NCBI GenBank assembly: GCA_046483285.1
Contig: JAWODN010000055.1
Location: 36,530-100,529, forward strand
Source: Candidatus Aminicenantes bacterium
GTDB taxonomy: Bacteria; Acidobacteriota; Aminicenantia; Aminicenantales; Aminicenantaceae
Length of the DNA: 64,000 bases
Direction of reading: 5' to 3'
Positions within the stretch are counted from its first letter, which is position 1. Every line of letters starts with the position of its first letter. Of this stretch, positions 4,066-56,887 are shown in pieces. The notes below the pieces were generated by a model, which searched no databases, had not been told where the DNA came from, and saw nothing but the letters and a program-made list of their open reading frames with translations. Both the position numbers and the translations under genes were made by a program.

Positions 4066-4115
4066 TTAGCCTGACCTATTCATAAAAAAACGGCCAGCCC
4101 GGCCCGTTCATCATC
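4066..4115 (-). repeat. Mosaic-repeat terminal piece (CCTGACCTATTCAT-A7 then CGGCCAGCCCGGCCCGTTCATCA), facing the kinase start
   Basis: Reverse complement of the T7-ATGAATAGGTCAGG motif seen before other start codons. Lies 30 nt upstream of the kinase ATG on the minus strand. Confidence 0.7.
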
Positions 4116-4147
4116 CAGGTTATCATTCAGACAAGTGAAATATGGGT

Positions 4148-5874: not shown

Positions 5875-6585
5875 TCAGAGTATTTCCTTTCTCAGAAGTT
5901 TGCCTTTATACAAAAACAGAATTTTTTCCCCGAAATTCCTGATCAGTTCCCGGTCGTGGGTGCATATAACCACCGTCGCGCCGTTCCGGTTGATTTCTTT
6001 GAACAGGCTCATGATTTCGAAAGCCAATTCCGTATCCAGGTTGCCGGTTGGTTCATCAGCCAGGATGATTTTGGGGTGGTTGACCACGGCCCGGGCTATG
6101 GCCACACGCTGCTGTTCGCCATAGGAGAGCTGAAACGGATAGTCCCACATTTTGTGCTGCAAATTGACCATCCGCAGCGCATTGAACACCCGCCTGCGGA
6201 TTTCTTTTCGGGGGATTCCTAAAATCTGCAGCACCACCGCCACGTTTTCAAAGACTTTTTTATGGAAAATCAGCCGAAAATCCTGGAACACGATTCCAAT
6301 AATTCTCCGCAAGGCATAAATTTTATAATCCGGAATGCGGAGAATGTTTCTCTGGTCTATGATGATTTGTCCCTGGGTCGGCAGGAGCTGCCGGAAAAGA
6401 ATTTTCAAGAGGGTGGTTTTTCCGGAGCCGCTGGGTCCGGTGACGAAACAAAAGTCGCCTTTTTCAATTTTAAAGGTCACATCGGATAAAGCCCATTTGG
6501 GTTTTTGGTACTGTTTCCACAGATGATAGACTTCAATCATTATTCTCTTGCCTGGCTTCTGTTTCCTTTCAGCAGGAATTTTCAT
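5875..6585 (-). CDS. ftsE: Cell division ATP-binding protein FtsE
   Basis: Walker [13 protein letters not shown] signature [14 protein letters not shown], Walker [12 protein letters not shown]. Abuts ftsX. Confidence 0.85.
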
Positions 6586-10295: not shown

Positions 10296-10368
10296 GCGAT
10301 GAATGATCCGGCAGATGTGGTGAGATCCGGCCCGCCCGCAAGGACGTTTTTTTATGAATAAGCCAGGC
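10296..10368 (+). repeat. Mosaic-repeat fragment (G-like GATGTGGTGAGATCCGGCCCGCCCG, then T7-ATGAATAAGCCAGG), facing the desulforedoxin start
   Basis: Shares GATGCGGTGAGATCCGGCCCG with 15225-15240 and 56622-56645. Ends in the T7-ATGAATA box 33 nt before the start at 10401. Confidence 0.7.
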
Positions 10369-10400: not shown

Positions 10401-10520
10401 ATGGCTGAACAGGATAAGATTTATGTGTGCTCGGTTTGCGGGCAGCAAGTTAAGGTGGTTAAGTCAGGTATGGGGACACTTGTCTGCTGCAATCAGCCCA
10501 TGACAGTCAAAAAAGATTAA
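10401..10520 (+). CDS. Desulforedoxin (39 aa, Cys4 iron centre)
   Basis: MAEQDKIYVCSVCGQQVKVVKSGMGTLVCCNQPMTVKKD. The C-x2-C...CC spacing is identical to D. gigas desulforedoxin ([36 protein letters not shown]). The RBS GGAGGG sits 7 nt upstream. Not in the ORF track because it is under 60 aa. Confidence 0.75.
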   Translation: MAEQDKIYVCSVCGQQVKVVKSGMGTLVCCNQPMTVKKD

Positions 10521-10990: not shown

Positions 10991-11043
10991 TTCCTGTGTC
11001 AGTTGGAATAAAAGATTAAGCGCATTCTTAAGCTGAATAACAC

Positions 11044-11275
11044 ACGGGCCGGGATTGCCGCAGACGGCGACAATTCTTTAATCCAATGTCATTCCGAGGT
11101 GCGATGCGGCGAGGGATTTCTGGCGGCCTCGTCTGGGCGGCGGGTCCCGCCTTCACGAGGCAGGAAGGGATTGCCACGGCTTGCTGGCGCAAGCCTCGCA
11201 ATGACAAGGGGTGTGTCAGGAAGGAATTGCCGCAAAGAAACGATTTTCTGGGGTATAAGTCAGGCATATAAGGTT
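11044..11275 (+). repeat. Mosaic repeat (modules B, C-variant and pre-start motif), facing the porin gene
   Basis: CACGGGCCGGGATTGCCGCAGACGGCGACAATTCTTTAAT (B), then ...CACGAGGCAGGAAGGGATTGCCACGGCTTGCTGGCGCAAGCCTCGCAATGACAAGGGG (C, 3' half identical to 15400-15458 and 56190-56248), then GGGTATAAGTCAGGCATATAAGG before the ATG at 11280. ORFs 11028-11267(-) and 11086-11271(+) lie inside it and are spurious. Confidence 0.8.
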
Positions 11276-14796: not shown

Positions 14797-14933
14797 GTAA
14801 TGTCTACTAAAACTATAGGAAAATTGACTCATTTCCAGGGAAATGATATGCTTAAAACTCAGATTTTCGATGCTTCAAAAGTACCGGAAGCTGATCTGTA
14901 ATCAACATAAATTTATTTGAATTTAAAGGAGTC

Positions 14934-15158
14934 ATGAAAATGAAAGAAAAAGTTCAAGCTGTATTGGATAAAATCCGGCCTTCTCTGAAAGCGGACGGAG
15001 GCGACGTGGAATTCGTGGGGATGGAAGACGGAGTGGTGAAGGTGAAATTGACCGGAGCCTGCGCTGGTTGCCCCATGTCCCAGATGACTTTAAAGATGGG
15101 AATTGAGAAATTACTGAAAAAGGAAATTCCGGAAGTCAAGGAAGTGGTGTCTGTCTGA
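14934..15158 (+). CDS. NifU-like Fe-S cluster scaffold domain protein (Nfu)
   Basis: 74 aa with the C-A-G-C-P motif (LTGACAGCPMS) of the NifU C-terminal domain. Confidence 0.7.
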   Translation: MKMKEKVQAVLDKIRPSLKADGGDVEFVGMEDGVVKVKLTGACAGCPMSQMTLKMGIEKLLKKEIPEVKEVVSV

Positions 15159-15171
15159 GTATTTCTGGCTC

Positions 15172-15633
15172 TGCAGCCATGGGAGCGGGAGATGGATCGC
15201 CGCCCCCATGGCCGCAAGATGCGGTGAGATCCGGCCCGGATGAATTATTTTTTTATGAGTTCATTATGAGTATAATACACCGTGAAGGATGAAAATGATT
15301 CCAATGTCATTCCCGGAGCGGAGCACTTTTGAGTCTGTCATTCCGAGACACGCAGTGCCTCGGAATCCCTGACTGCTTCGTATGAGCGGTGGGTTCCGCT
15401 TTCACGAGGCAGGAAGAGATTGCCACGGCTTGCTGGCGCAAGCTTCGCGATGACAAGGGGCATGTCGTCCCGGGGAGCGGAGCAGCGGGAATCTTAGAGT
15501 GCCTCGGCTAATGATTCGGAACCGGCTCATCAGACGAAGCCGAATAAGATCCTTACGGCCTGCTTCGCAGGCCTCAGGATGACAGCGGAGCTGTCATTTT
15601 CTAAGGTATAGGTCAGGATAAGGTATAGGCGAA
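15172..15633 (+). repeat. Mosaic repeat, modules H/G-F-C-D, facing nadA
   Basis: H/G is CCATGGGAGCGGGAGATGGATCGCCGCCCCCATGG...GATGCGGTGAGATCCGGCCCGG. F (15247-15336) is T7-ATGAGTTCAT, TATAAT at 15271, then ACACCGTGAAGGATGAAAATGATTCCAATGTCATTCCCGGAGCGGAGC. C is 15337-15462. D is 15463-15633 and ends in CTAAGGTATAGGTCAGGATAAGGTATAGGCGAA before the ATG. About 95% identical to 56034-56400. Confidence 0.85.
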
Positions 15634-16548
15634 ATGAAAAACACCGGGAATAAAAAAATTTACCAAGAGATTGAAAGTTTAAAGAAAGAGCATGACGCGG
15701 TTGTCATTGCGCATAATTACCAGATCGGTGAAGTGCAGGAAGCTTCGGATTTTGTGGGTGATTCACTGGGTTTGAGTATCGAAGCTTCCCGGCGTGAGGA
15801 GCAGGTCATTGTTTTTTGCGGGGTCCATTTCATGGCGGAAACGGCCGCGATTCTGGCCCCGGAAAAGACCGTGATCATTCCGGAGCCGAAAGCCGGCTGC
15901 CCCATGGCGGATATGATCACCGCGGATCAGATGAGGCGGTGGAAGGCCGAGCATCCTGGAGCCGTGGCGGTCTGTTATGTCAACAGCACGGCGGACGTCA
16001 AAGCGGAATGCGACATATGCTGCACTTCTTCCAATGCTGTTGCCGTGGTGGAGGCGGTGGAAGGGGAAACCATCTTATTTGCACCGGATAAAAATTTAGC
16101 CTCCTGGGTAAGCCGTCATACCTTCAAAAAAATTATTCCCTGGGAAGGGTGCTGCTATGTTCATGACCAAATTCATCTGCAGGATGTTTTGAAAAAAAAA
16201 CAGGAGCATCCGGATGCGGAAGTATGGGTTCATCCTGAGTGTCCGCCCGCGGTGATTGACACCGCCGATAAGGTTTTATCCACCGGGGGCATGGTGAGAG
16301 AAGCCGGCAGAACCGCTTCGCCCGCTGTCATTATCGGCACTGAATCCGGAATGATATATCGTTTGGAAAAAGAAAATTCCGCCGTTAAATTTTTTCCTGC
16401 CAGGGACCAGGCGATATGTGTCAACATGAAAAAGAATAATCTGACAAAACTTCACCGGGCCCTCAAAAATTCAGGCCCGGTGGTCAAGGTTCCCGGCGAT
16501 ATCGCAGCCCGTGCCCGCCAGGCCATCCAAAAAATGATCGCCGTATGA
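15634..16548 (+). CDS. nadA: Quinolinate synthase A
   Basis: AHNYQ, FCGVHFMAET and three conserved Cys regions. Length 304 aa. Confidence 0.85.
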   Translation: MKNTGNKKIYQEIESLKKEHDAVVIAHNYQIGEVQEASDFVGDSLGLSIEASRREEQVIVFCGVHFMAETAAILAPEKTVIIPEPKAGCPMADMITADQMRRWKAEHPGAVAVCYVNSTADVKAECDICCTSSNAVAVVEAVEGETILFAPDKNLASWVSRHTFKKIIPWEGCCYVHDQIHLQDVLKKKQEHPDAEVWVHPECPPAVIDTADKVLSTGGMVREAGRTASPAVIIGTESGMIYRLEKENSAVKFFPARDQAICVNMKKNNLTKLHRALKNSGPVVKVPGDIAARARQAIQKMIAV

Positions 16549-16715
16549 ATTCATTATGTATAACCTGACCTATTCATAAAAAAATTGCGATGTTTTTGTA
16601 ATCTCTTTCTTATCCGCGATAAGCATGGTTTTTAGTGATGCGCCTCGCATGTGCGGCAATCCCGGCCCGTGAATAATTCAGGTATAATACACCGTGAACC
16701 AGGAATTCTAATCTG
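16546..16715. repeat. Mosaic repeat (ATGAATTCAT box overlapping the nadA stop, module A inverted, B-start inverted, F-like GGTATAATACACCGTGAACC)
   Basis: ATGAATTCAT at 16545-16554. CCTGACCTATTCAT-A7-TTGCGATGTTTTTGTAATC at 16564-16600. GCGGCAATCCCGGCCCGTGAATAATTCAGGTATAATACACCGTGAACC at 16651-16700. Confidence 0.8.
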
Positions 16716-26264: not shown

Positions 26265-26906
26265 TCAGTCTAAAATAAAGACTCTCCGGCCGCGGATTTC
26301 CAGCCGGCCTTCAAAATAATGCTGAACGGCTTCGGGATAAATACGGTGCTCTTCAGCCAAAATTCTCCGGGAGAGAGTTTCTTCGGTGTCTTCCTGATAA
26401 ACCGGAACCACTGCCTGGAGGATAATGGGACCCATATCCACGTCCGGAACCACAAAGTGAACGGTGGCGCCTGAATATTTGACTCCCCATTCCAGAGCCT
26501 TTTTCTGCACATGAAGGCCGGGAAAAGCAGGCAGAAGAGCGGGATGAATGTTCATGATGCGGTTTTGAAATTTCCGGCAGAATCCGGGGGTGAGAATGCG
26601 CATATAGCCTGCAAGGCATATCAAATCGATGCGGCGTTTATCAATTTCAGCTGCGGCGGCTTCATCAAAAGCTTCCCTGGTTTCAAATTGTTTGGGATTT
26701 AAAAAAACGGTGTCCAGATTGAATTCCTGGGCCCGGATAATTCCGGAGGGGTCTTTTTTGTTGCTGAGCACCAGGGAGATATCGGCGTTGATTTGACCTC
26801 TTTGCACAGCCCGGTGAATTGCCAGAAAATTTGATCCCCTTCCGGACAGTAAAACGCCGATTTTTCCTTTTTTCTTCGGGCTTCTGAAAAACGTATTATC
26901 CGTCAT
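26265..26906 (-). CDS. purN: Phosphoribosylglycinamide formyltransferase
   Basis: IGVLLSGRGSNFLAI, the N-x-HPALLP motif (NIHPALLP) and a folate-binding region. Confidence 0.85.
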   Translation of the reverse strand: MTDNTFFRSPKKKGKIGVLLSGRGSNFLAIHRAVQRGQINADISLVLSNKKDPSGIIRAQEFNLDTVFLNPKQFETREAFDEAAAAEIDKRRIDLICLAGYMRILTPGFCRKFQNRIMNIHPALLPAFPGLHVQKKALEWGVKYSGATVHFVVPDVDMGPIILQAVVPVYQEDTEETLSRRILAEEHRIYPEAVQHYFEGRLEIRGRRVFILD

Positions 26907-26950
26907 TTTTACACCTCTCTTATACCTGAGCTATTCTGCCATATTGCTTG

Positions 26951-27550
26951 GCCTGACCTATTCATAAAAAAATTGCGATGTTTTTGCAATCCCTTTTTTA
27001 TCAGCGATAAGCATGGTTTTTAATGAAAGATCAAATAGAACGTTTTTCATTTTTCAATTGTTATTTTAATCGCAATTTTTTTACCCTTCGGGCGGGCATG
27101 CCACTTTGTCATTGCGAGGCTTGCGCCAGCAAGCCGTGGCAATCCGTTTCTGCCTCGTGAAAGCGGAACCCACCGCCCATACGAGGCAGTCAGGGATCCC
27201 TGGTCGCTTCGCTCCCCGGGGCGACATTGAATTAAAGAATTGTCGTCGTCTGCGGCAATCTCGGCCCGTGAATAGGTCAGGTTAGAAAATCGTTTCTTTG
27301 TGCCCATGGGGGCGGGATGATGGATAAGCCGGCCCGTATGAAGGCTGAGCGGGCAGGGTTCCTCTCCGCAGGAGAGGAGAGCGAAGCCGGAATCGGAGCG
27401 GATGTCCTCGCTGGGGACATCCGCGTGGCGGCGATCCATCTCCCGCTCCCATGGGCACAGTTCAAAAGTGATTGTCATGGTACACGGTGTATTATACTCA
27501 TGATGAATTCATAAAAAAATTAACCGGCAATCCAGGCCCGCTGGATGCCA
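26951..27550 (-). repeat. Mosaic repeat in minus orientation, modules F-H-B-C-E/A, facing the purN start
   Basis: Read on the minus strand: F (27519-27455, with the ATGAATTCAT box at 27503-27512 and TATAAT), the H nested palindrome (27462-27298), B (27292-27230), C-variant (27228-27095), then the E end and A (27092-26952: GCCCGAAGGGTAAAAAAATTGCGATTAAAA...GATTGCAAAAACATCGCAAT-T7-ATGAATAGGTCAGG) 45 nt upstream of the purN ATG. ORFs 27047-27478(-) and 27317-27514(+) inside it are spurious. Confidence 0.85.
27298..27462. repeat. Nested-palindrome element (H): 35-bp terminal inverted repeats TGCCCATGGGrGCGGGAkGATGGAT...GCCGGCC around two internal perfect palindromes
   Basis: 27301-27335 is the reverse complement of 27427-27462. 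Inside are CCTCTCCGCAGGAGAGG and GGATGTCCtcgctgGGGACATCC. A single-copy relative lies at 15178-15216. Confidence 0.75.
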
Positions 27551-27617
27551 AGTCAGGCTTAAGCATCACATATTATAATAAAAAAAGATATAATTGTCAC
27601 CAAAAACAACATTTATG

Positions 27618-27645
27618 TTGACAAACATCATTTTTTCACTACAAT
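27618..27645 (+). promoter_or_regulatory. Near-consensus sigma-70 promoter for glnA (TTGACA, 16 nt, TACAAT)
   Basis: TTGACA at 27618-27623 and TACAAT at 27640-27645, with an AT-rich UP-like region upstream. A GGGGCCGGAAAGGCCC hairpin at 27667-27684 lies in the leader before the ATG at 27698. Confidence 0.45.
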
Positions 27646-27697
27646 CAATACAAAATGAATGAGGAAGGGGCCGGAAAGGCCCGAAAGGGAAACAGCC

Positions 27698-36037: not shown

Positions 36038-36640
36038 GGATGAGGAACGGGAGGGAGCGGCCGGAGATGCGGGGCGTTATCCGCCGACTGCACTCTTTGC
36101 AACGAGAGACCGGTTTTCTAAGTTGTAAGTTATACAGACTGAATGAAGAGCGGGCGGGAGCCGCCGGAAAGGGGAGTGCTGTTTATCGCCATTTTTTTAT
36201 GGATTCAGGATGTGTATAATAGATTTTCTAACCTGAATTATTCACGGGTCGAGATTGCCGCAGACGACGACAATTCTTTAATTCAATGTCGTCCCGAGGA
36301 GCGGAGCGACGAGGGATCTGTGAGTGCTTTCGTCAGGCCATATTGATAACGGGTTGCCAATTCGAAGCAGTCCGGGATCCTTCGCTCCGCTCAGGATGAC
36401 ATTAAATTAATGAAAGGTCGTCACTTCACTGCGAATGCCCTGCAACAAAGCAGATGCGGTGAGAGTCGGCCCGCCCGAAGGGTAAAAAAATTGCGATTAA
36501 AATAAAAATATGAAAATGAAAAACTTTCCATTTGAACTTTCAATAAAAATCATGTTAATCGCTGATAAAAAAGGGATTGCAAAAACATCGCAATTTTTTT
36601 ATGAATAATTCAGGCTAAGGTATAAGTCAGGATAGGTTAA
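36038..36640 (+). repeat. Mosaic repeat, modules G-G-F(degenerate)-B-E plus pre-start motif, facing ppiD
   Basis: Two G copies (36038-36075 and 36118-36190). T7-ATGGATTCAGGATGTGTATAAT at 36193-36220. B at 36235-36300. The BE element 36235-36613 is about 95% identical to 56405-56789. Ends in AGGCTAAGGTATAAGTCAGGATAGGTTAAG at 36611-36640. ORF 36143-36346 inside it is spurious. Confidence 0.85.
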
Positions 36641-36672
36641 GTTGAATAAAATCAGTAATATGAGGTGCACCC

Positions 36673-39408: not shown

Positions 39409-39657
39409 TTTACTTGTTATGGATTATTAAAAACGTTTCTTTTGGTCTTGTCAAAACATAATTTATCCCGGGCTTTTCTGTCCTGACCCGTGAAAACGGG
39501 CATGGAAACGGACGATGGATCACCGCAGCACGGATTCCCGAACGGGAAAAAACCCCGCAAAGAGGGATGGGCTTTCTTCTTGAAACAGATCACAAACAAT
39601 GCTAACCTGATTTTCCACCCCGGCGGATAAGCCAGCCGGGATGTCCGCAAATGCGAG

Positions 39658-39692
39658 GCATGTGTGTAATACGCCACGAACCATGAAAATCG
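39658..39692 (+). repeat. F-module fragment (ATGTGTGTAATACGCCACGAACCATGAAAATCGG), promoter-like, 18 nt before the iadA RBS
   Basis: Matches ATGAGTATAAyACACCGTGAACCATGAAAATGA of F modules at 15261-15296 and 56051-56086. The minus-strand ORFs at 39417-40117 are spurious. Confidence 0.5.
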
Positions 39693-45904: not shown

Positions 45905-45995
45905 CATTCTGACCTATACCTTAGCCTTACCTCTGTTTAAAAAAATCGATCCCTCGCGGCCATGGGTGGGGGCAATGTTCGGCCCGTTCATCACA
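45905..45995 (-). repeat. Mosaic-repeat terminal piece in minus orientation (pre-start motif, A7, H/G-like CGCGGCCATGGGTGGGGGC, GGCCCGTTCATCA), facing the TPR gene
   Basis: Reverse complement GGTAAGGCTAAGGTATAGGTCAG lies immediately 5' of the TPR ATG. It matches AGGCTAAGGTATAAGTCAGG (36611-36630) and CTAAGGTATAGGTCAGG (15601-15617). Confidence 0.7.
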
Positions 45996-52298: not shown

Positions 52299-53087
52299 CT
52301 ATTCCCTTTTTCCCTGTTTCAAAACCGATATCATTTGTTCATGAACAAGGCCGTTGGTGGCTAATATTTCGCTCCCGTCATGACGAAAAGGATTCCCGGC
52401 GAAATCGGTTATTCGCCCTCCCGCTTCAGACACGATCAAAGCCCCCGCCGCCATGTCCCATGGAGCCAGTTTCATTTCCCAAAAACCATCAAACCGGCCG
52501 CATGCCGTATAACAAAGATCCAAGGCCGCCGAACCGCAGCGGCGGATCGCCTGAGCCCGAACAGCCATGCGGGCGAAATGATCAAGGTTATTGACTTCAC
52601 TCTCCCTTATGTCATAAGGAAATCCCGTGGCGATCAGACTCCGGCCCAACCGGCCTTCCTTGGAAACAGCCAGAGCTTTCCCGTTGAGGGCGGCTCCCTT
52701 TCCCTTCCGGGCGGAGAACATCTCATCCCGGGCGGGATCATACACCACTCCTGTCACGATCTCCCCTCTATGCTCCAAAGCAATGGAAATGCAAAATACC
52801 GGGAAACCGTGGGCATAATTTGTCGTTCCGTCCAGAGGATCAACCAGCCAGAGGAATTCAGATCCTTTTTCGGACGTCAGCTCTTCCTCGGCCAGAACAT
52901 CATGGGAAGGGAAAATCCGCTGAAGATGCCCGGCGATCAGGCTTTGGGATTCTTTGTCCACATCCGTAATCAGGTCCACCGCCCCTTTATATGAAATCTT
53001 TCTTTTTTTCCCCCGGCGGCGGTTCAGCAAATTTCCCGCTTTTCGGGCGGTCTCGATCGCCGCCTCCAAGGTGTCATCGCTCTTCAT
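52299..53087 (-). CDS. suhB: Inositol monophosphatase family protein (SuhB-like)
   Basis: WLVDPLDGTTNYAHG metal-binding motif and the WDMAAG C-terminal motif. Confidence 0.8.
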   Translation of the reverse strand: MKSDDTLEAAIETARKAGNLLNRRRGKKRKISYKGAVDLITDVDKESQSLIAGHLQRIFPSHDVLAEEELTSEKGSEFLWLVDPLDGTTNYAHGFPVFCISIALEHRGEIVTGVVYDPARDEMFSARKGKGAALNGKALAVSKEGRLGRSLIATGFPYDIRESEVNNLDHFARMAVRAQAIRRCGSAALDLCYTACGRFDGFWEMKLAPWDMAAGALIVSEAGGRITDFAGNPFRHDGSEILATNGLVHEQMISVLKQGKRE

Positions 53088-54540: not shown

Positions 54541-55241
54541 TGAAATCCGAAAATTCTGCGATTATAACCGCCCGCAACCTATGGAAAACATATCCCATGG
54601 GACAACAAGAAGTGAACGCTCTATGCGGAGTGGATTTGAAGGTGCAAAAGAATGAATTTCTGGCTATAATGGGGCCGTCCGGCTCCGGAAAATCAACGCT
54701 TATGAACCTCTTGGGATGCTTGGACACTCCCAGCCGCGGAGATTACTATTTAAACCAACGCTTGGTCAGCAGCATGGACGATAATGATTTAGCGTTCATC
54801 CGCAACCAGGAAATCGGATTTGTTTTTCAGGTCTTCAATCTGCTTTCCCGGGCTACGGCGTTTCATAATGTGGAACTTCCTCTTATCTATAAAGGGGAAA
54901 AAAAATGGCGGCGGGAAGAAAAGGTGAATGAAGCCCTGAAACTGGTGGAAATATATCAGCGGCGCGGACACCTCCCTTCTGAATTGTCCGGGGGCGAAAG
55001 ACAACGGGTCGCCATCGCCCGGGCCCTGGTCAATTCCCCCTCCCTGCTTCTGGCAGATGAACCGACCGGCAACCTGGACTCAAAAACAGGCAATGAAATT
55101 TTGAACTTGTTTCATAAAATCCATCAAGACGGAAACACCATTATTATGGTCACTCATGATCCCGGTATCTCCCGCCAGGCCCAGAGAATCATCCACATCA
55201 AAGACGGGAAAGTGGAAAAAGAAGAAAAAAGGGGAGGATGA
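54537..55241 (+). CDS. ABC transporter ATP-binding protein (MacB/LolD-type ATPase, no fused permease)
   Basis: Walker [15 protein letters not shown], signature [14 protein letters not shown], Walker [12 protein letters not shown]. Length 234 aa, no TM segment. Confidence 0.85.
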
Positions 55242-55947: not shown

Positions 55948-55997
55948 TCCCCCTCCGCCATTCACCCCTCTTTGTAAAATCTGGTATACTAAGATGT

Positions 55998-56887
55998 GGA
56001 TGATGAACGGGCCGGGATGGCCGCATATCGCCATTTTTTTATGAATTCATCATGAGTATAACACACCGTGAACCATGAAAATGATCCCAATGTCATTCCC
56101 GGAACGGAGCGCTTTTGAGTCTGTCATTCCGAGGCACGCAGTGCCTCGGAATCCCTGACTGCCTCGTATGGCCGGTGGGTTCTGCTTTCACGAGGCAGGA
56201 AGGGATTGCCACGGCTTGCTGGCGCAAGCCTCGCAATGACAAAGTGGCATGTCTTCCCGGAGAGCGGATCGACAGGAATCTTAGAGTGCCTCGGCTAATG
56301 AGTCAGAACCGGCTCATCAGACGAATCCGAATAAGATCTTCACGGCCTGCTTCGCAGGCCTCAGGATGACAGCGAAGCTGTCATTTTCTAAGATATAGGT
56401 GAGGCTTGCCTGGCCTATTCACGGGCCGGGATGGCTGCAGACGACGACAATTCTTTAATTCAATGTCGTCCTGAGGAGCGGAGTGACGAGGGATCTGTGA
56501 GTGCTTTCGCCAGGCCGTATGGACAATGGGTTGCCAATTCGAAGCAGTCCGGGATCCTTCGCTCTGCTCAGGATGACATTAAATTAATGAAAGGTCGTCA
56601 CTTCACTGCGACGAGCCTCAAGCCGGAAGATGCGGTGAGATCCGGCCCGCCCGAAGGGTAAAAAAATGGCGATTAAAATAAAAATATAAAAATGAAAAAC
56701 TTTCTATTTGAACTTTCAATAAAAATCATGTTAATTGCTGATAAAAAAAGGATTGCAAAAAAATCGCAATTTTTTTATGAATAATTCAGGATAACATATG
56801 TGTGTTTTACAGAAATGATGAATATCGCAGCTAACAAAGGATTGACAAAAGTATCGCCATTTTTTTATGAATAGGTCAGGATAGGTT
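55998..56887 (+). repeat. Largest mosaic repeat block (0.9 kb), modules G-F-C-D-B-E plus extra and terminal T7-ATGAATAGGTCAGGATAGGTT, facing the DUF4388 gene
   Basis: G at 55998-56033. F at 56034-56126 (ATGAATTCAT at 56041-56050). C at 56127-56252. D at 56253-56400. B and E at 56405-56789. An AGGATTGACAAAA -35-like string at 56826-56838. Terminal motif ends at 56887, and the ATG is at 56888. ORFs 56115-56369 and 56431-56661 inside it are spurious. Confidence 0.85.

Follow-up and report, generated by a model that had tools for sequence, protein, structure and literature searches.

The Correia elements (CREE) of Neisseria are intergenic, gene-adjacent MITEs (small non-autonomous transposons) which are co-transcribed with their neighbours, fold tightly and can form -10 boxes at their junctions (PMC10969869, PMC3049150). 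The BOX and ERIC repeats are also transcribed with neighbouring genes, on which they exert orientation-dependent effects (PMC3049150), and members of the IS1380 family, such as ISEcp1 and ISPme1, are known for strong outward promoters (PMC9330008). The putative mobile promoters represent a further class, being conserved sequences upstream of unrelated genes, some of which are the ends of mobile elements (Matus-Garcia et al. 2012, PMC3488235).

The repeat upstream of purN in the window analysed here, a 64,000-nt stretch of a contig from a Candidatus Aminicenantes bacterium, is a stack of MITEs of the IS1380 type. These elements are similar to Correia elements in being abundant and intergenic, in having terminal inverted repeats and a short target duplication, and in lying often immediately upstream of genes; however, Correia elements are 100-155 bp long with 26-bp repeats and a TA duplication, as compared to 13-nt repeats, a 4-bp YTAR duplication and an IS1380-type parent in the present case, and their promoters and RNase III processing are experimentally established, whereas the findings presented here derive from sequence, with orientation bias as the main feature. 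The growth of modular or palindromic repeats into longer arrays is shared with BOX (boxA-B-C) of S. pneumoniae and ERIC of enterobacteria, but the sequences and the hosts are different, BOX is without a clear target duplication of this type, and our comparison is again a purely computational one. The MITEs share with IS1380-family elements ends starting in CC and a short duplication, yet they carry no transposase, and while the outward promoters of the insertion sequences (ISs) are situated at the 3′ (right) end, it is the left end that the gene-facing end of the MITEs resembles. Putative mobile promoters are defined by position only, whereas here the mobile element is identified and its promoter function is questioned. 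The arrays do not constitute a new kind of system, as MITEs that are co-transcribed or bear promoters are already well known; the useful additions are the polarity statistics and the strand-specific fold. A literature search found no paper linking Aminicenantes to MITEs, and a search with the hairpin motifs GTCATTGCGAG and GTCATCCTGAG returned unrelated primers only.

The gap between purN (start at 26906, minus strand) and the divergent gene, assigned by Pfam to glutamine synthetase (27659, plus strand), measures 753 nt and is mostly repeat. Its segment 26924-27540(-) matches, in reverse orientation and at 72-94% identity, the arrays upstream of nadA, ppiD, the DUF4388 gene and an OMP-like gene, long collinear matches joining it to 15177-15622(+), 36172-36642(+), 55997-56887(+) and 11018-11217(+), and shorter pieces of the repeat are present at seven further intergenic sites in the window. 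The 21-mer TTTTTTTATGAATANNTCAGG has 9 matches in the window at two or fewer mismatches, where 0.01 are expected, and the window repeats are confirmed to be real, collinear and far above chance. Pfam confirmed the neighbouring NtrY-like histidine kinase, rubrerythrin, NadA, Nth, PpiD-like, amidohydrolase, TPR and DUF4388 proteins; Dx refers to a desulforedoxin-like ORF of 39 aa (10401-10520) adjoining the rubrerythrin gene. No Rfam family matched at the gathering score in the whole window, and 26900-27660 gave just one chance snoRNA match (E=0.66); a known RNA or tRNA-derived element was ruled out, as there was no Rfam or tRNA match.

The constant order of modules to which the earlier note had drawn attention is indeed shared between arrays, but it represents inheritance and cannot be counted anew for each locus, as complete composites were copied from one locus to another (15247-15617 and 56033-56404 are 91% identical, as are 36232-36623 and 56409-56799). 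The window arrays were built by nested and tandem insertion; element E1 is inserted in a CTAA inside the end of an older element, of which a remnant end persists at 36619-36631, and E3, the complete element facing purN, is collinear with 36232-36614 and 56409-56790. Measured from the start codon back to the nearest terminal-repeat-like piece, the distance is 3 nt for the TPR gene, 7 nt for the DUF4388 gene, 15 nt for the OMP-like gene, 16 nt for nadA, approximately 19 nt for iadA, 33 nt for both Dx and the histidine kinase gene and 41 nt for ppiD, while the purN start is 45 nt from E3 and 18 nt from an R-end remnant, and the measured range is accordingly 3-45 nt instead of the 0-35 nt given previously. 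The motif AAGGTATAGG occurs at 15603 and 15620 and, reversed, at 45913. The coordinates of all features are collected in Table 1.

Table 1. Repeat elements, their parts and candidate promoter sites in the window; R and L designate the T7-bearing end and the opposite end of an element.
Feature	Coordinates	Strand	Remarks
purN	26265..26906	-	Gene faced by the array; PF00551; 100% identical to a Candidatus Aminicenantes MAG protein
E3, complete 330-bp MITE facing purN	26952..27281	-	Terminal repeats with zero mismatches
E3 ends	R 26952-26972 (T7-bearing); L terminal repeat 27269-27281	-	Flanks CTAA/CCAA in element orientation
R terminal-repeat remnant CCTGAGCTATTCT	26925..26937	-	1 mismatch; lies after E3 and before the Shine-Dalgarno AGAGAGGTG of purN
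G+C-rich hairpin modules within E3	27086..27226	-	Common to the nadA, OMP and DUF4388 arrays; 82-86% matches to 56122-56262, 15336-15472 and 11087-11207
Long palindromic module, ~175 nt, distal to E3	27296..27470	-	Tip matches 15177-15204 exactly
F piece: variant R end (T7-ATGAATTCATCATGAG) then TATAATACACCGTG	27471..27540	-	TATAAT at 27496-27491
Near-consensus sigma-70-like site GTGACA-17-TATAAT, 11/12	27572..27600	-	Unique DNA; points through the array to purN
Near-consensus promoter-like site TTGACA-16-TACAAT	27618..27645	+	For the divergent glutamine synthetase gene
E1, complete 383-bp MITE facing ppiD	36232..36614	+	Perfect CTAA/CTAA target duplication
E2, complete 382-bp MITE, DUF4388 array	56409..56790	+	91% to E1
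Partial R-end copy	56813..56880	+	7 nt from the DUF4388 start; AGGTCAGGATAGG is the sole Shine-Dalgarno-like sequence there
371-bp composite (F-type) upstream of nadA	15247..15617	+	91% to 56033-56404; ends in variant TTTTCTAAGGTATAGGTCAGG
E4, complete 119-bp MITE between nadA and nth	16564..16682	-	Antisense; L end abuts TATAATACACCGTGAACC
Minimal element of 50 bp, consisting of two ends and T7; faces the histidine kinase gene	4070..4119	-	
OMP-like gene array	11018..11264	+	L-end-like start, hairpin modules, variant R end 11252-11264
Partial element upstream of the desulforedoxin-like ORF	10308..10367	+	R end 10347-10367
Degenerate R-end remnant	45906..45946	-	3 nt from the TPR gene start

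Two wider samples were used to define the elements: a genome set, in which species-representative genomes were scanned with the 21-mer (the R end), giving at least 115 loci, mostly of Aminicenantes/Acidobacteriota MAGs, and a metagenome set scanned with the opposite (L) end, CCTGRATTATTCACGAGTCGAGG, giving at least 120 loci, in which both ends of each element are defined. The units are bounded by 13-nt inverted repeats, CCTGRNYTATTCA ... TGAATARNYCAGG, with zero mismatches in E1-E4 and also in 52 and 79 elements outside the window among the matches listed. Among these matches 26 of 52 and 36 of 78 elements show a perfect direct 4-bp target duplication, of consensus YTAA/YTAG, and a further 18 and 21 agree at three of the four bases; direct flank matches outnumber inverted ones, and many are non-palindromic (CTAA, TAAA, TTAG, TCAA). 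Element sizes in the matches listed are discrete, ranging from 37 to 635 bp with a main peak at 251-255 bp and minimal forms of 37-58 bp, and the insertion sites are unrelated, the 120 matches listed falling into 119 flank clusters. The canonical form in Aminicenantes is 253 bp long, closed by A7-TGGCGAT ... ATCGCCA-T7, and its L half is a G+C-rich hairpin while its R half is A-rich; the units in the window are longer derivatives with extra hairpin modules. REP/BIME repeats are defined as being without terminal repeats and target duplication, both of which are present in these elements. The internal G+C-rich hairpins occur, within the window, only inside elements bounded by terminal repeats.

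No transposase was encountered between repeat pairs in the Aminicenantes and metagenome loci listed, and an autonomous copy at these positions was rejected, as the ORFs there are ordinary or housekeeping genes. In the Bacteroidales loci caught by the 21-mer, this sequence is the end of an insertion sequence: at one of these (L054) the end CCTGAATTATTCATAAAAAAA precedes the gene for a 428-aa transposase (NF033539, with 356 bits where the cutoff is 180; PF13701, 6e-143). Full-length IS copies of 1703 bp with both ends (L244-L247) were also recovered, one of them flanked by CTAA/CTAA. Over 21 nt the R end of the MITEs has the same sequence as the left end of these full-length IS1380-family elements, and as the same 21-mer terminates an IS encoding an IS1380 transposase, the MITEs were assigned to this family; an IS5-family parentage, guessed from the YTAR target, was replaced once the transposase-bearing element with the same end was at hand. 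Duplications of 4-5 bp are typical of IS1380-family elements, the length being 4 bp here. No matching autonomous IS was found in the ~1.6 Mb of listed Aminicenantes loci or in the window; the full-length copies come from Bacteroidales and metagenome contigs, and Caldithrix is the organism named for close homologues. The repeat had earlier been taken for a cassette 'rather than a random MITE', a contrast contradicted by the terminal repeats, the 4-bp duplications, the discrete sizes, the unrelated insertion sites and the IS1380-type end.

The elements are oriented with respect to the neighbouring genes. Within the window seven same-strand contexts are co-oriented and one is anti-oriented, and in divergent gaps the arrays face purN, iadA and the gene at 53087; the significance of the polarity comes from the wider samples and not from the window alone (p=0.07). 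Using simple gene calls outside the window (longest non-overlapping ORFs of at least 80 aa), the R end was found to face a start rather than a stop in a ratio of 85:28 in the genome set (p=7e-8; same-strand co:anti 40:14, divergent:convergent 19:6) and of 46:23 in the metagenome set (p=0.008; 25:9 and 11:13, respectively) among the matches listed. Combined, the ratio is 131:51 (p=2.7e-9), with 65:23 for same-strand contexts (p=8.5e-6), again among the matches listed, in samples that span several species and whose copies are related by descent and phylogenetically non-independent. This two- to threefold excess of starts over stops faced by the R end is confirmed as a real and reproducible property of these elements. 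The proposal that the repeats face the downstream gene on both strands was thereby borne out, in seven of eight contexts in the window and in the wider samples listed. The exception that had been pointed out at 16546-16715 was also correct, E4 being antisense between nadA and nth.

The polarity depends on distance, as element ends in the metagenome set at 40 nt or less from a start codon are R rather than L ends in a ratio of 25:6, as compared to 21:22 beyond 40 nt (Fisher p=0.007; among the matches listed). In same-strand spacers the gaps are short on both sides of the element (medians of about 25-34 nt among the matches listed), and the impression that elements end just before a start codon therefore partly reflects compact spacers. 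In divergent gaps the R end lies close to its gene, at a median of 33 nt, whereas about 100 nt separate the L end from the other gene, among the matches listed. A bias due to replication direction was rejected, as the orientation flips with gene strand within a few kb of the window (4070(-), 10347(+), 16564(-), 26952(-), 36232(+), 45906(-), 56409(+)), and an antisense-strand terminator was rejected as the cause of polarity, since just one of 43 elements among the matches listed has such a site on the antisense strand.

The sense strand of the elements carries RNA-level signals. Among the matches listed it is purine-rich (A.354, T.270, G.210, C.166), and tracts of at least five A (3.8 per element) are commoner than tracts of at least five T (1.5). 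When 61 canonical copies among the matches listed were aligned, they gave a consensus fold of 48 pairs with compensatory changes in 23 of them; in these copies 96.8% of cells form pairs as compared to 31-42% in slid controls, double-change cells number 196 as compared to 21-36, and none of 500 shuffles reaches the observed pairing values. When folded independently, the sense strand is the more stable in 60 of the 61 copies listed (-86.0 against -67.2 kcal/mol), and the energies of the consensus fold are -47.6 for sense and -23.7 for antisense. A G.U to A.C ratio of 403:24 on the sense-predicted structure alone was judged to be biased by the way in which the structure was derived, and the count was redone on the union of pairs from either strand, giving 406:155, in cells which overstate the number of independent events as the copies are related. 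The window arrays of the DUF4388, ppiD and OMP-like genes follow the rule of greater sense stability, while the purN array is an exception in that the antisense strand is the more stable for E3, which folds with its ends paired (z=-6.2), and for the distal palindrome (-112.1 vs -97.7 kcal/mol). Intrinsic terminators are absent from the sense strand of 43 elements among the matches listed, and a terminator between the upstream stop and the element is present in 2 of 25 same-strand contexts listed. The notion of a leader, contained in the earlier note, fits these strand-specific signals, and co-transcription in the sense direction is better supported than a promoter within the elements.

An exact look-up of the PurN sequence of the window yielded no record. 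At the purN locus itself, relatives whose PurN is 81-83% identical lack an element in front of purN, but their synteny differs too, and among the PurN homologue loci examined there is no clean empty orthologous site but a synteny break, the purN array coinciding with this break relative to the purL-X-purN operon of the relatives. Relatives at 98% identity (L116, L117) have an element at the same purN site, with the R-end remnant conserved in position; the internal content is different, the whole A-rich R half being missing, and the internal deletions of the purN element differ between strains.

On balance we favour, with moderate confidence, an explanation in which the arrays consist of MITEs mobilised by an IS1380-family transposase and owe their polarity to selection after insertion and not to a promoter cassette. 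Insertion itself would be unoriented, because the target is near-palindromic, and copies would survive preferentially when their sense strand reads into the downstream gene. The whole element would be transcribed, either by way of the upstream gene or from a promoter lying outside, and form a folded 5′ leader or an intercistronic spacer, with the A-rich, weakly structured R end adjoining the ribosome-binding site and the G+C-rich hairpin half kept away from it, and with the terminal AGGTCAGG occasionally replacing the Shine-Dalgarno sequence. We infer such read-through in the sense direction from sequence features; for purN, transcription would most likely start at the near-consensus promoter at 27600-27572, within a segment (27541-27658) that has no other match in the window, and run for ~660 nt through the array. 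Asymmetry between the two halves cannot be the whole reason for the polarity, because minimal elements, which have no hairpin half, also face a start in nine of ten cases among the matches listed.

A less likely competitor is that the elements are portable promoter-leader-RBS cassettes, in which an outward promoter in F or in the A/T-rich R half brings an expression signal with each insertion. The polarity and the closeness to start codons suit this reading, as does precedent, since Correia and other MITEs (PMC10969869) and the IS1380-family members ISEcp1 and ISPme1 (PMC9330008) supply promoters to their neighbours, and purN, having lost the ancestral purL-X-purN operon context, needs a new one. 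The perfect TATAAT that had been reported in F behind a T7 tract is present at 15271, 16683 and 36215 and, reversed, at 27491-27496, that is, in four of six copies, the T7 tract being a further point in favour of the cassette, while the copies at ~56057 and 39665 read TATAAC and TGTAAT. The hexamer lies at the junction between a variant element end and TATAATACACCGTGAACC, a junction that at nth also follows the opposite (L) end, and only the T-tract occupies the -35 position. Scanning with a sigma-70-like consensus, which may not capture the rules of Aminicenantes, reported nothing in the four large window arrays either at F or at the terminal module; promoter-like sites in three arrays total 4, 0 and 2, the shuffle means being 1.5, 1.1 and 1.2, and in canonical copies among the matches listed such sites are scattered, occurring on the sense strand in 9 of 31 and on the antisense strand in 15 of 31, with a shuffled mean of 0.30 per element. 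Further candidates for a cassette are TTGCAA-17-TATGAA, found in the window variants, and TTG(Y)AT-17-AATAAT, which belongs to the commonest subfamily (A) and ends ~34 nt short of the R end; the latter is weak, occurs in the consensus of that one subfamily only, is absent from the window variants and is rejected by the scan solely because its -35 scores 3/6. The candidate motifs differ between subfamilies. The cassette also fails to account for the strand-specific fold signal in the L-half hairpin, which lies upstream of any such promoter, for the random orientation of the start-adjacent ends listed beyond ~40 nt, where a promoter should still work, and for the near relatives that are without the R half at purN, and a better promoter is available outside the purN array. 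A promoter inside the elements is thus not supported, and the sigma-70 promoter previously placed in F, with no -35, a junction-derived TATAAT, a negative scan and the better site beyond the purN array, was not upheld. The associated claim that the terminal piece supplies the Shine-Dalgarno sequence holds for a minority of genes: five of nine window genes (Dx, purN, ppiD, iadA and the rubrerythrin gene behind Dx) retain a canonical Shine-Dalgarno of their own in unique sequence downstream of the repeat, whereas for nadA, DUF4388, TPR and perhaps OMP the sole purine-rich element is the repeat end AGGTCAGG or AAGGTATAGG, and the wider sample presents a similar mix among the matches listed.

Also unlikely is the idea that the elements are mobile structured 5′-leader RNAs whose sense-strand fold is under selection and which, once placed beside a ribosome-binding site, alter mRNA stability or translation, with some subfamilies possibly starting transcription; if it were true, one transposon family would have rewired the expression of hundreds of unrelated Aminicenantes genes. 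We regard as improbable that the polarity is a by-product of mutation or mechanism, such as replication- or transcription-coupled insertion or strand-biased mutation, with no effect on the gene. How IS1380 elements transpose is not known (PMC9330008), deamination with a strand bias could convert G-C to G.U pairs on one strand, and template switching can maintain palindromes without selection; against this, the orientation changes over a few kb in step with the strand of the adjoining gene, which excludes replication direction, the target is near-palindromic, the R end adjoins the nearer gene of divergent pairs among the matches listed, the bias varies with distance to the start codon, and a C-to-T bias would not yield the observed excess of A over T. 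Least credible of all, and in our view very improbable, is a role at the DNA level, as sites for nucleoid proteins or substrates for recombination, with orientation being incidental. The position of the purN array at a synteny break, the strain-to-strain differences in internal deletions and the presence of A-tracts would agree with such a role, but it predicts neither the strand-specific tolerance of G.U pairs nor the energy difference between sense and antisense, and no dependence on distance to the start codon.

Aminicenantes are uncultured and abundant sediment bacteria. The MITE family described here takes up many of the spacers between their genes, disrupts assemblies, gives rise to spurious ORFs and is a marker of at least one operon rearrangement. 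The orientation bias together with the strand-specific covarying fold provides a natural data set on the sequence that is tolerated between promoter and ribosome-binding site, and the question of expression signals in IS1380-type MITEs becomes testable. Many of the insertions among the matches listed are located exactly on a stop codon, as the target contains TAA or TAG.

In relatives at 81-83% PurN identity (the purN loci L119 and L121 3001-3642) purN occupies the third position in a purL-X-purN-tyrS operon, with a spacer of 12-13 nt. In the window genome (26265-27659) purL-X has given way to the array and to a divergently oriented glutamine synthetase gene. This replacement indicates that the purN array marks a rearrangement breakpoint. 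In strains that are 98% identical, contigs end within or at the purN array (L116 1-201, L117 1-108 and L118 1), from which it follows that the repeats fragment assemblies. The A-rich half of approximately 125 nt is absent at the same purN insertion site in these strains and an additional AGGTATAGGTCGGG piece is present in the L116 array; the internal content is subject to fast turnover.

The 21-nt R end, that of the T7-bearing, A-rich half, is also borne by full-length IS1380-family elements of approximately 1.7 kb encoding a 451-aa transposase, which are carried by Bacteroidales MAGs and many metagenomes, Caldithrix being the named source of close homologues. A single end sequence is thus common to different phyla. 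Among the matches listed for metagenome loci L123-L242, 12 of the 23 R ends located at gene 3′ ends had no gap to the stop codon, as had 5 of the 40 L ends (the opposite terminal repeat) in such positions. At the metagenome loci listed the YTAA/YTAG target is often identical with the stop codon, and target duplication then restores it.

The closing stem of the A-rich half carries compensatory changes between subfamilies (alignment A3, columns 138-141 with 263-266), its variants being TGGCGAT/ATCGCCA, TGTCGAT/ATCGACA and TGCCGAT/ATCGGCA, with TTGCGAT/ATCGCAA as the window form (26973-26979 with 27070-27075); one pair of this stem occurs as GC (32), UA (16) or CG (9) in A3. Internal G+C-rich hairpins are also present, and are presumably similar to hairpin repeats in the genomes of many unrelated bacteria; searching the literature with the sequences of these hairpins gave no match.

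Features of the repeat family and its surroundings
Feature	Location	Strand
Full-length IS1380-family element with 21-nt end	L054 141-1520	
Full-length IS1380-family element with 21-nt end	L244 396-2098	
21-nt end on IS1380-family elements, further loci	L008, L018, L040, L078, L097	
ORF within array	27047-27478	-
ORF within array	56115-56369	+
ORF within array	14954-15217	-
ORF within array	39417-39677	-
NifU-like ORF, ~73 aa	14939-15160	+
Promoter-like site	14824-14852	
Hairpins GTCATTCCGAGG...CCTCGGAATCCCTGAC	15332-15374, 56118-56160, 27106-27226, others	

Four sites in the window carry ORFs of 84-143 aa that are contained entirely or for the most part in the arrays; these are probably not genes, and could become annotated as hypothetical proteins. 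A small NifU-like ORF is located between a 381-aa gene and the nadA array, and owing to the promoter-like site upstream of it, nadA may be transcribed together with this ORF, through the array.

The two copies of an 86-nt inverted repeat (77%; 6035-6120 and 54993-55078) each fall within a coding region, one on either strand. This repeat bears no relation to the MITE family and probably represents a protein domain common to both regions.
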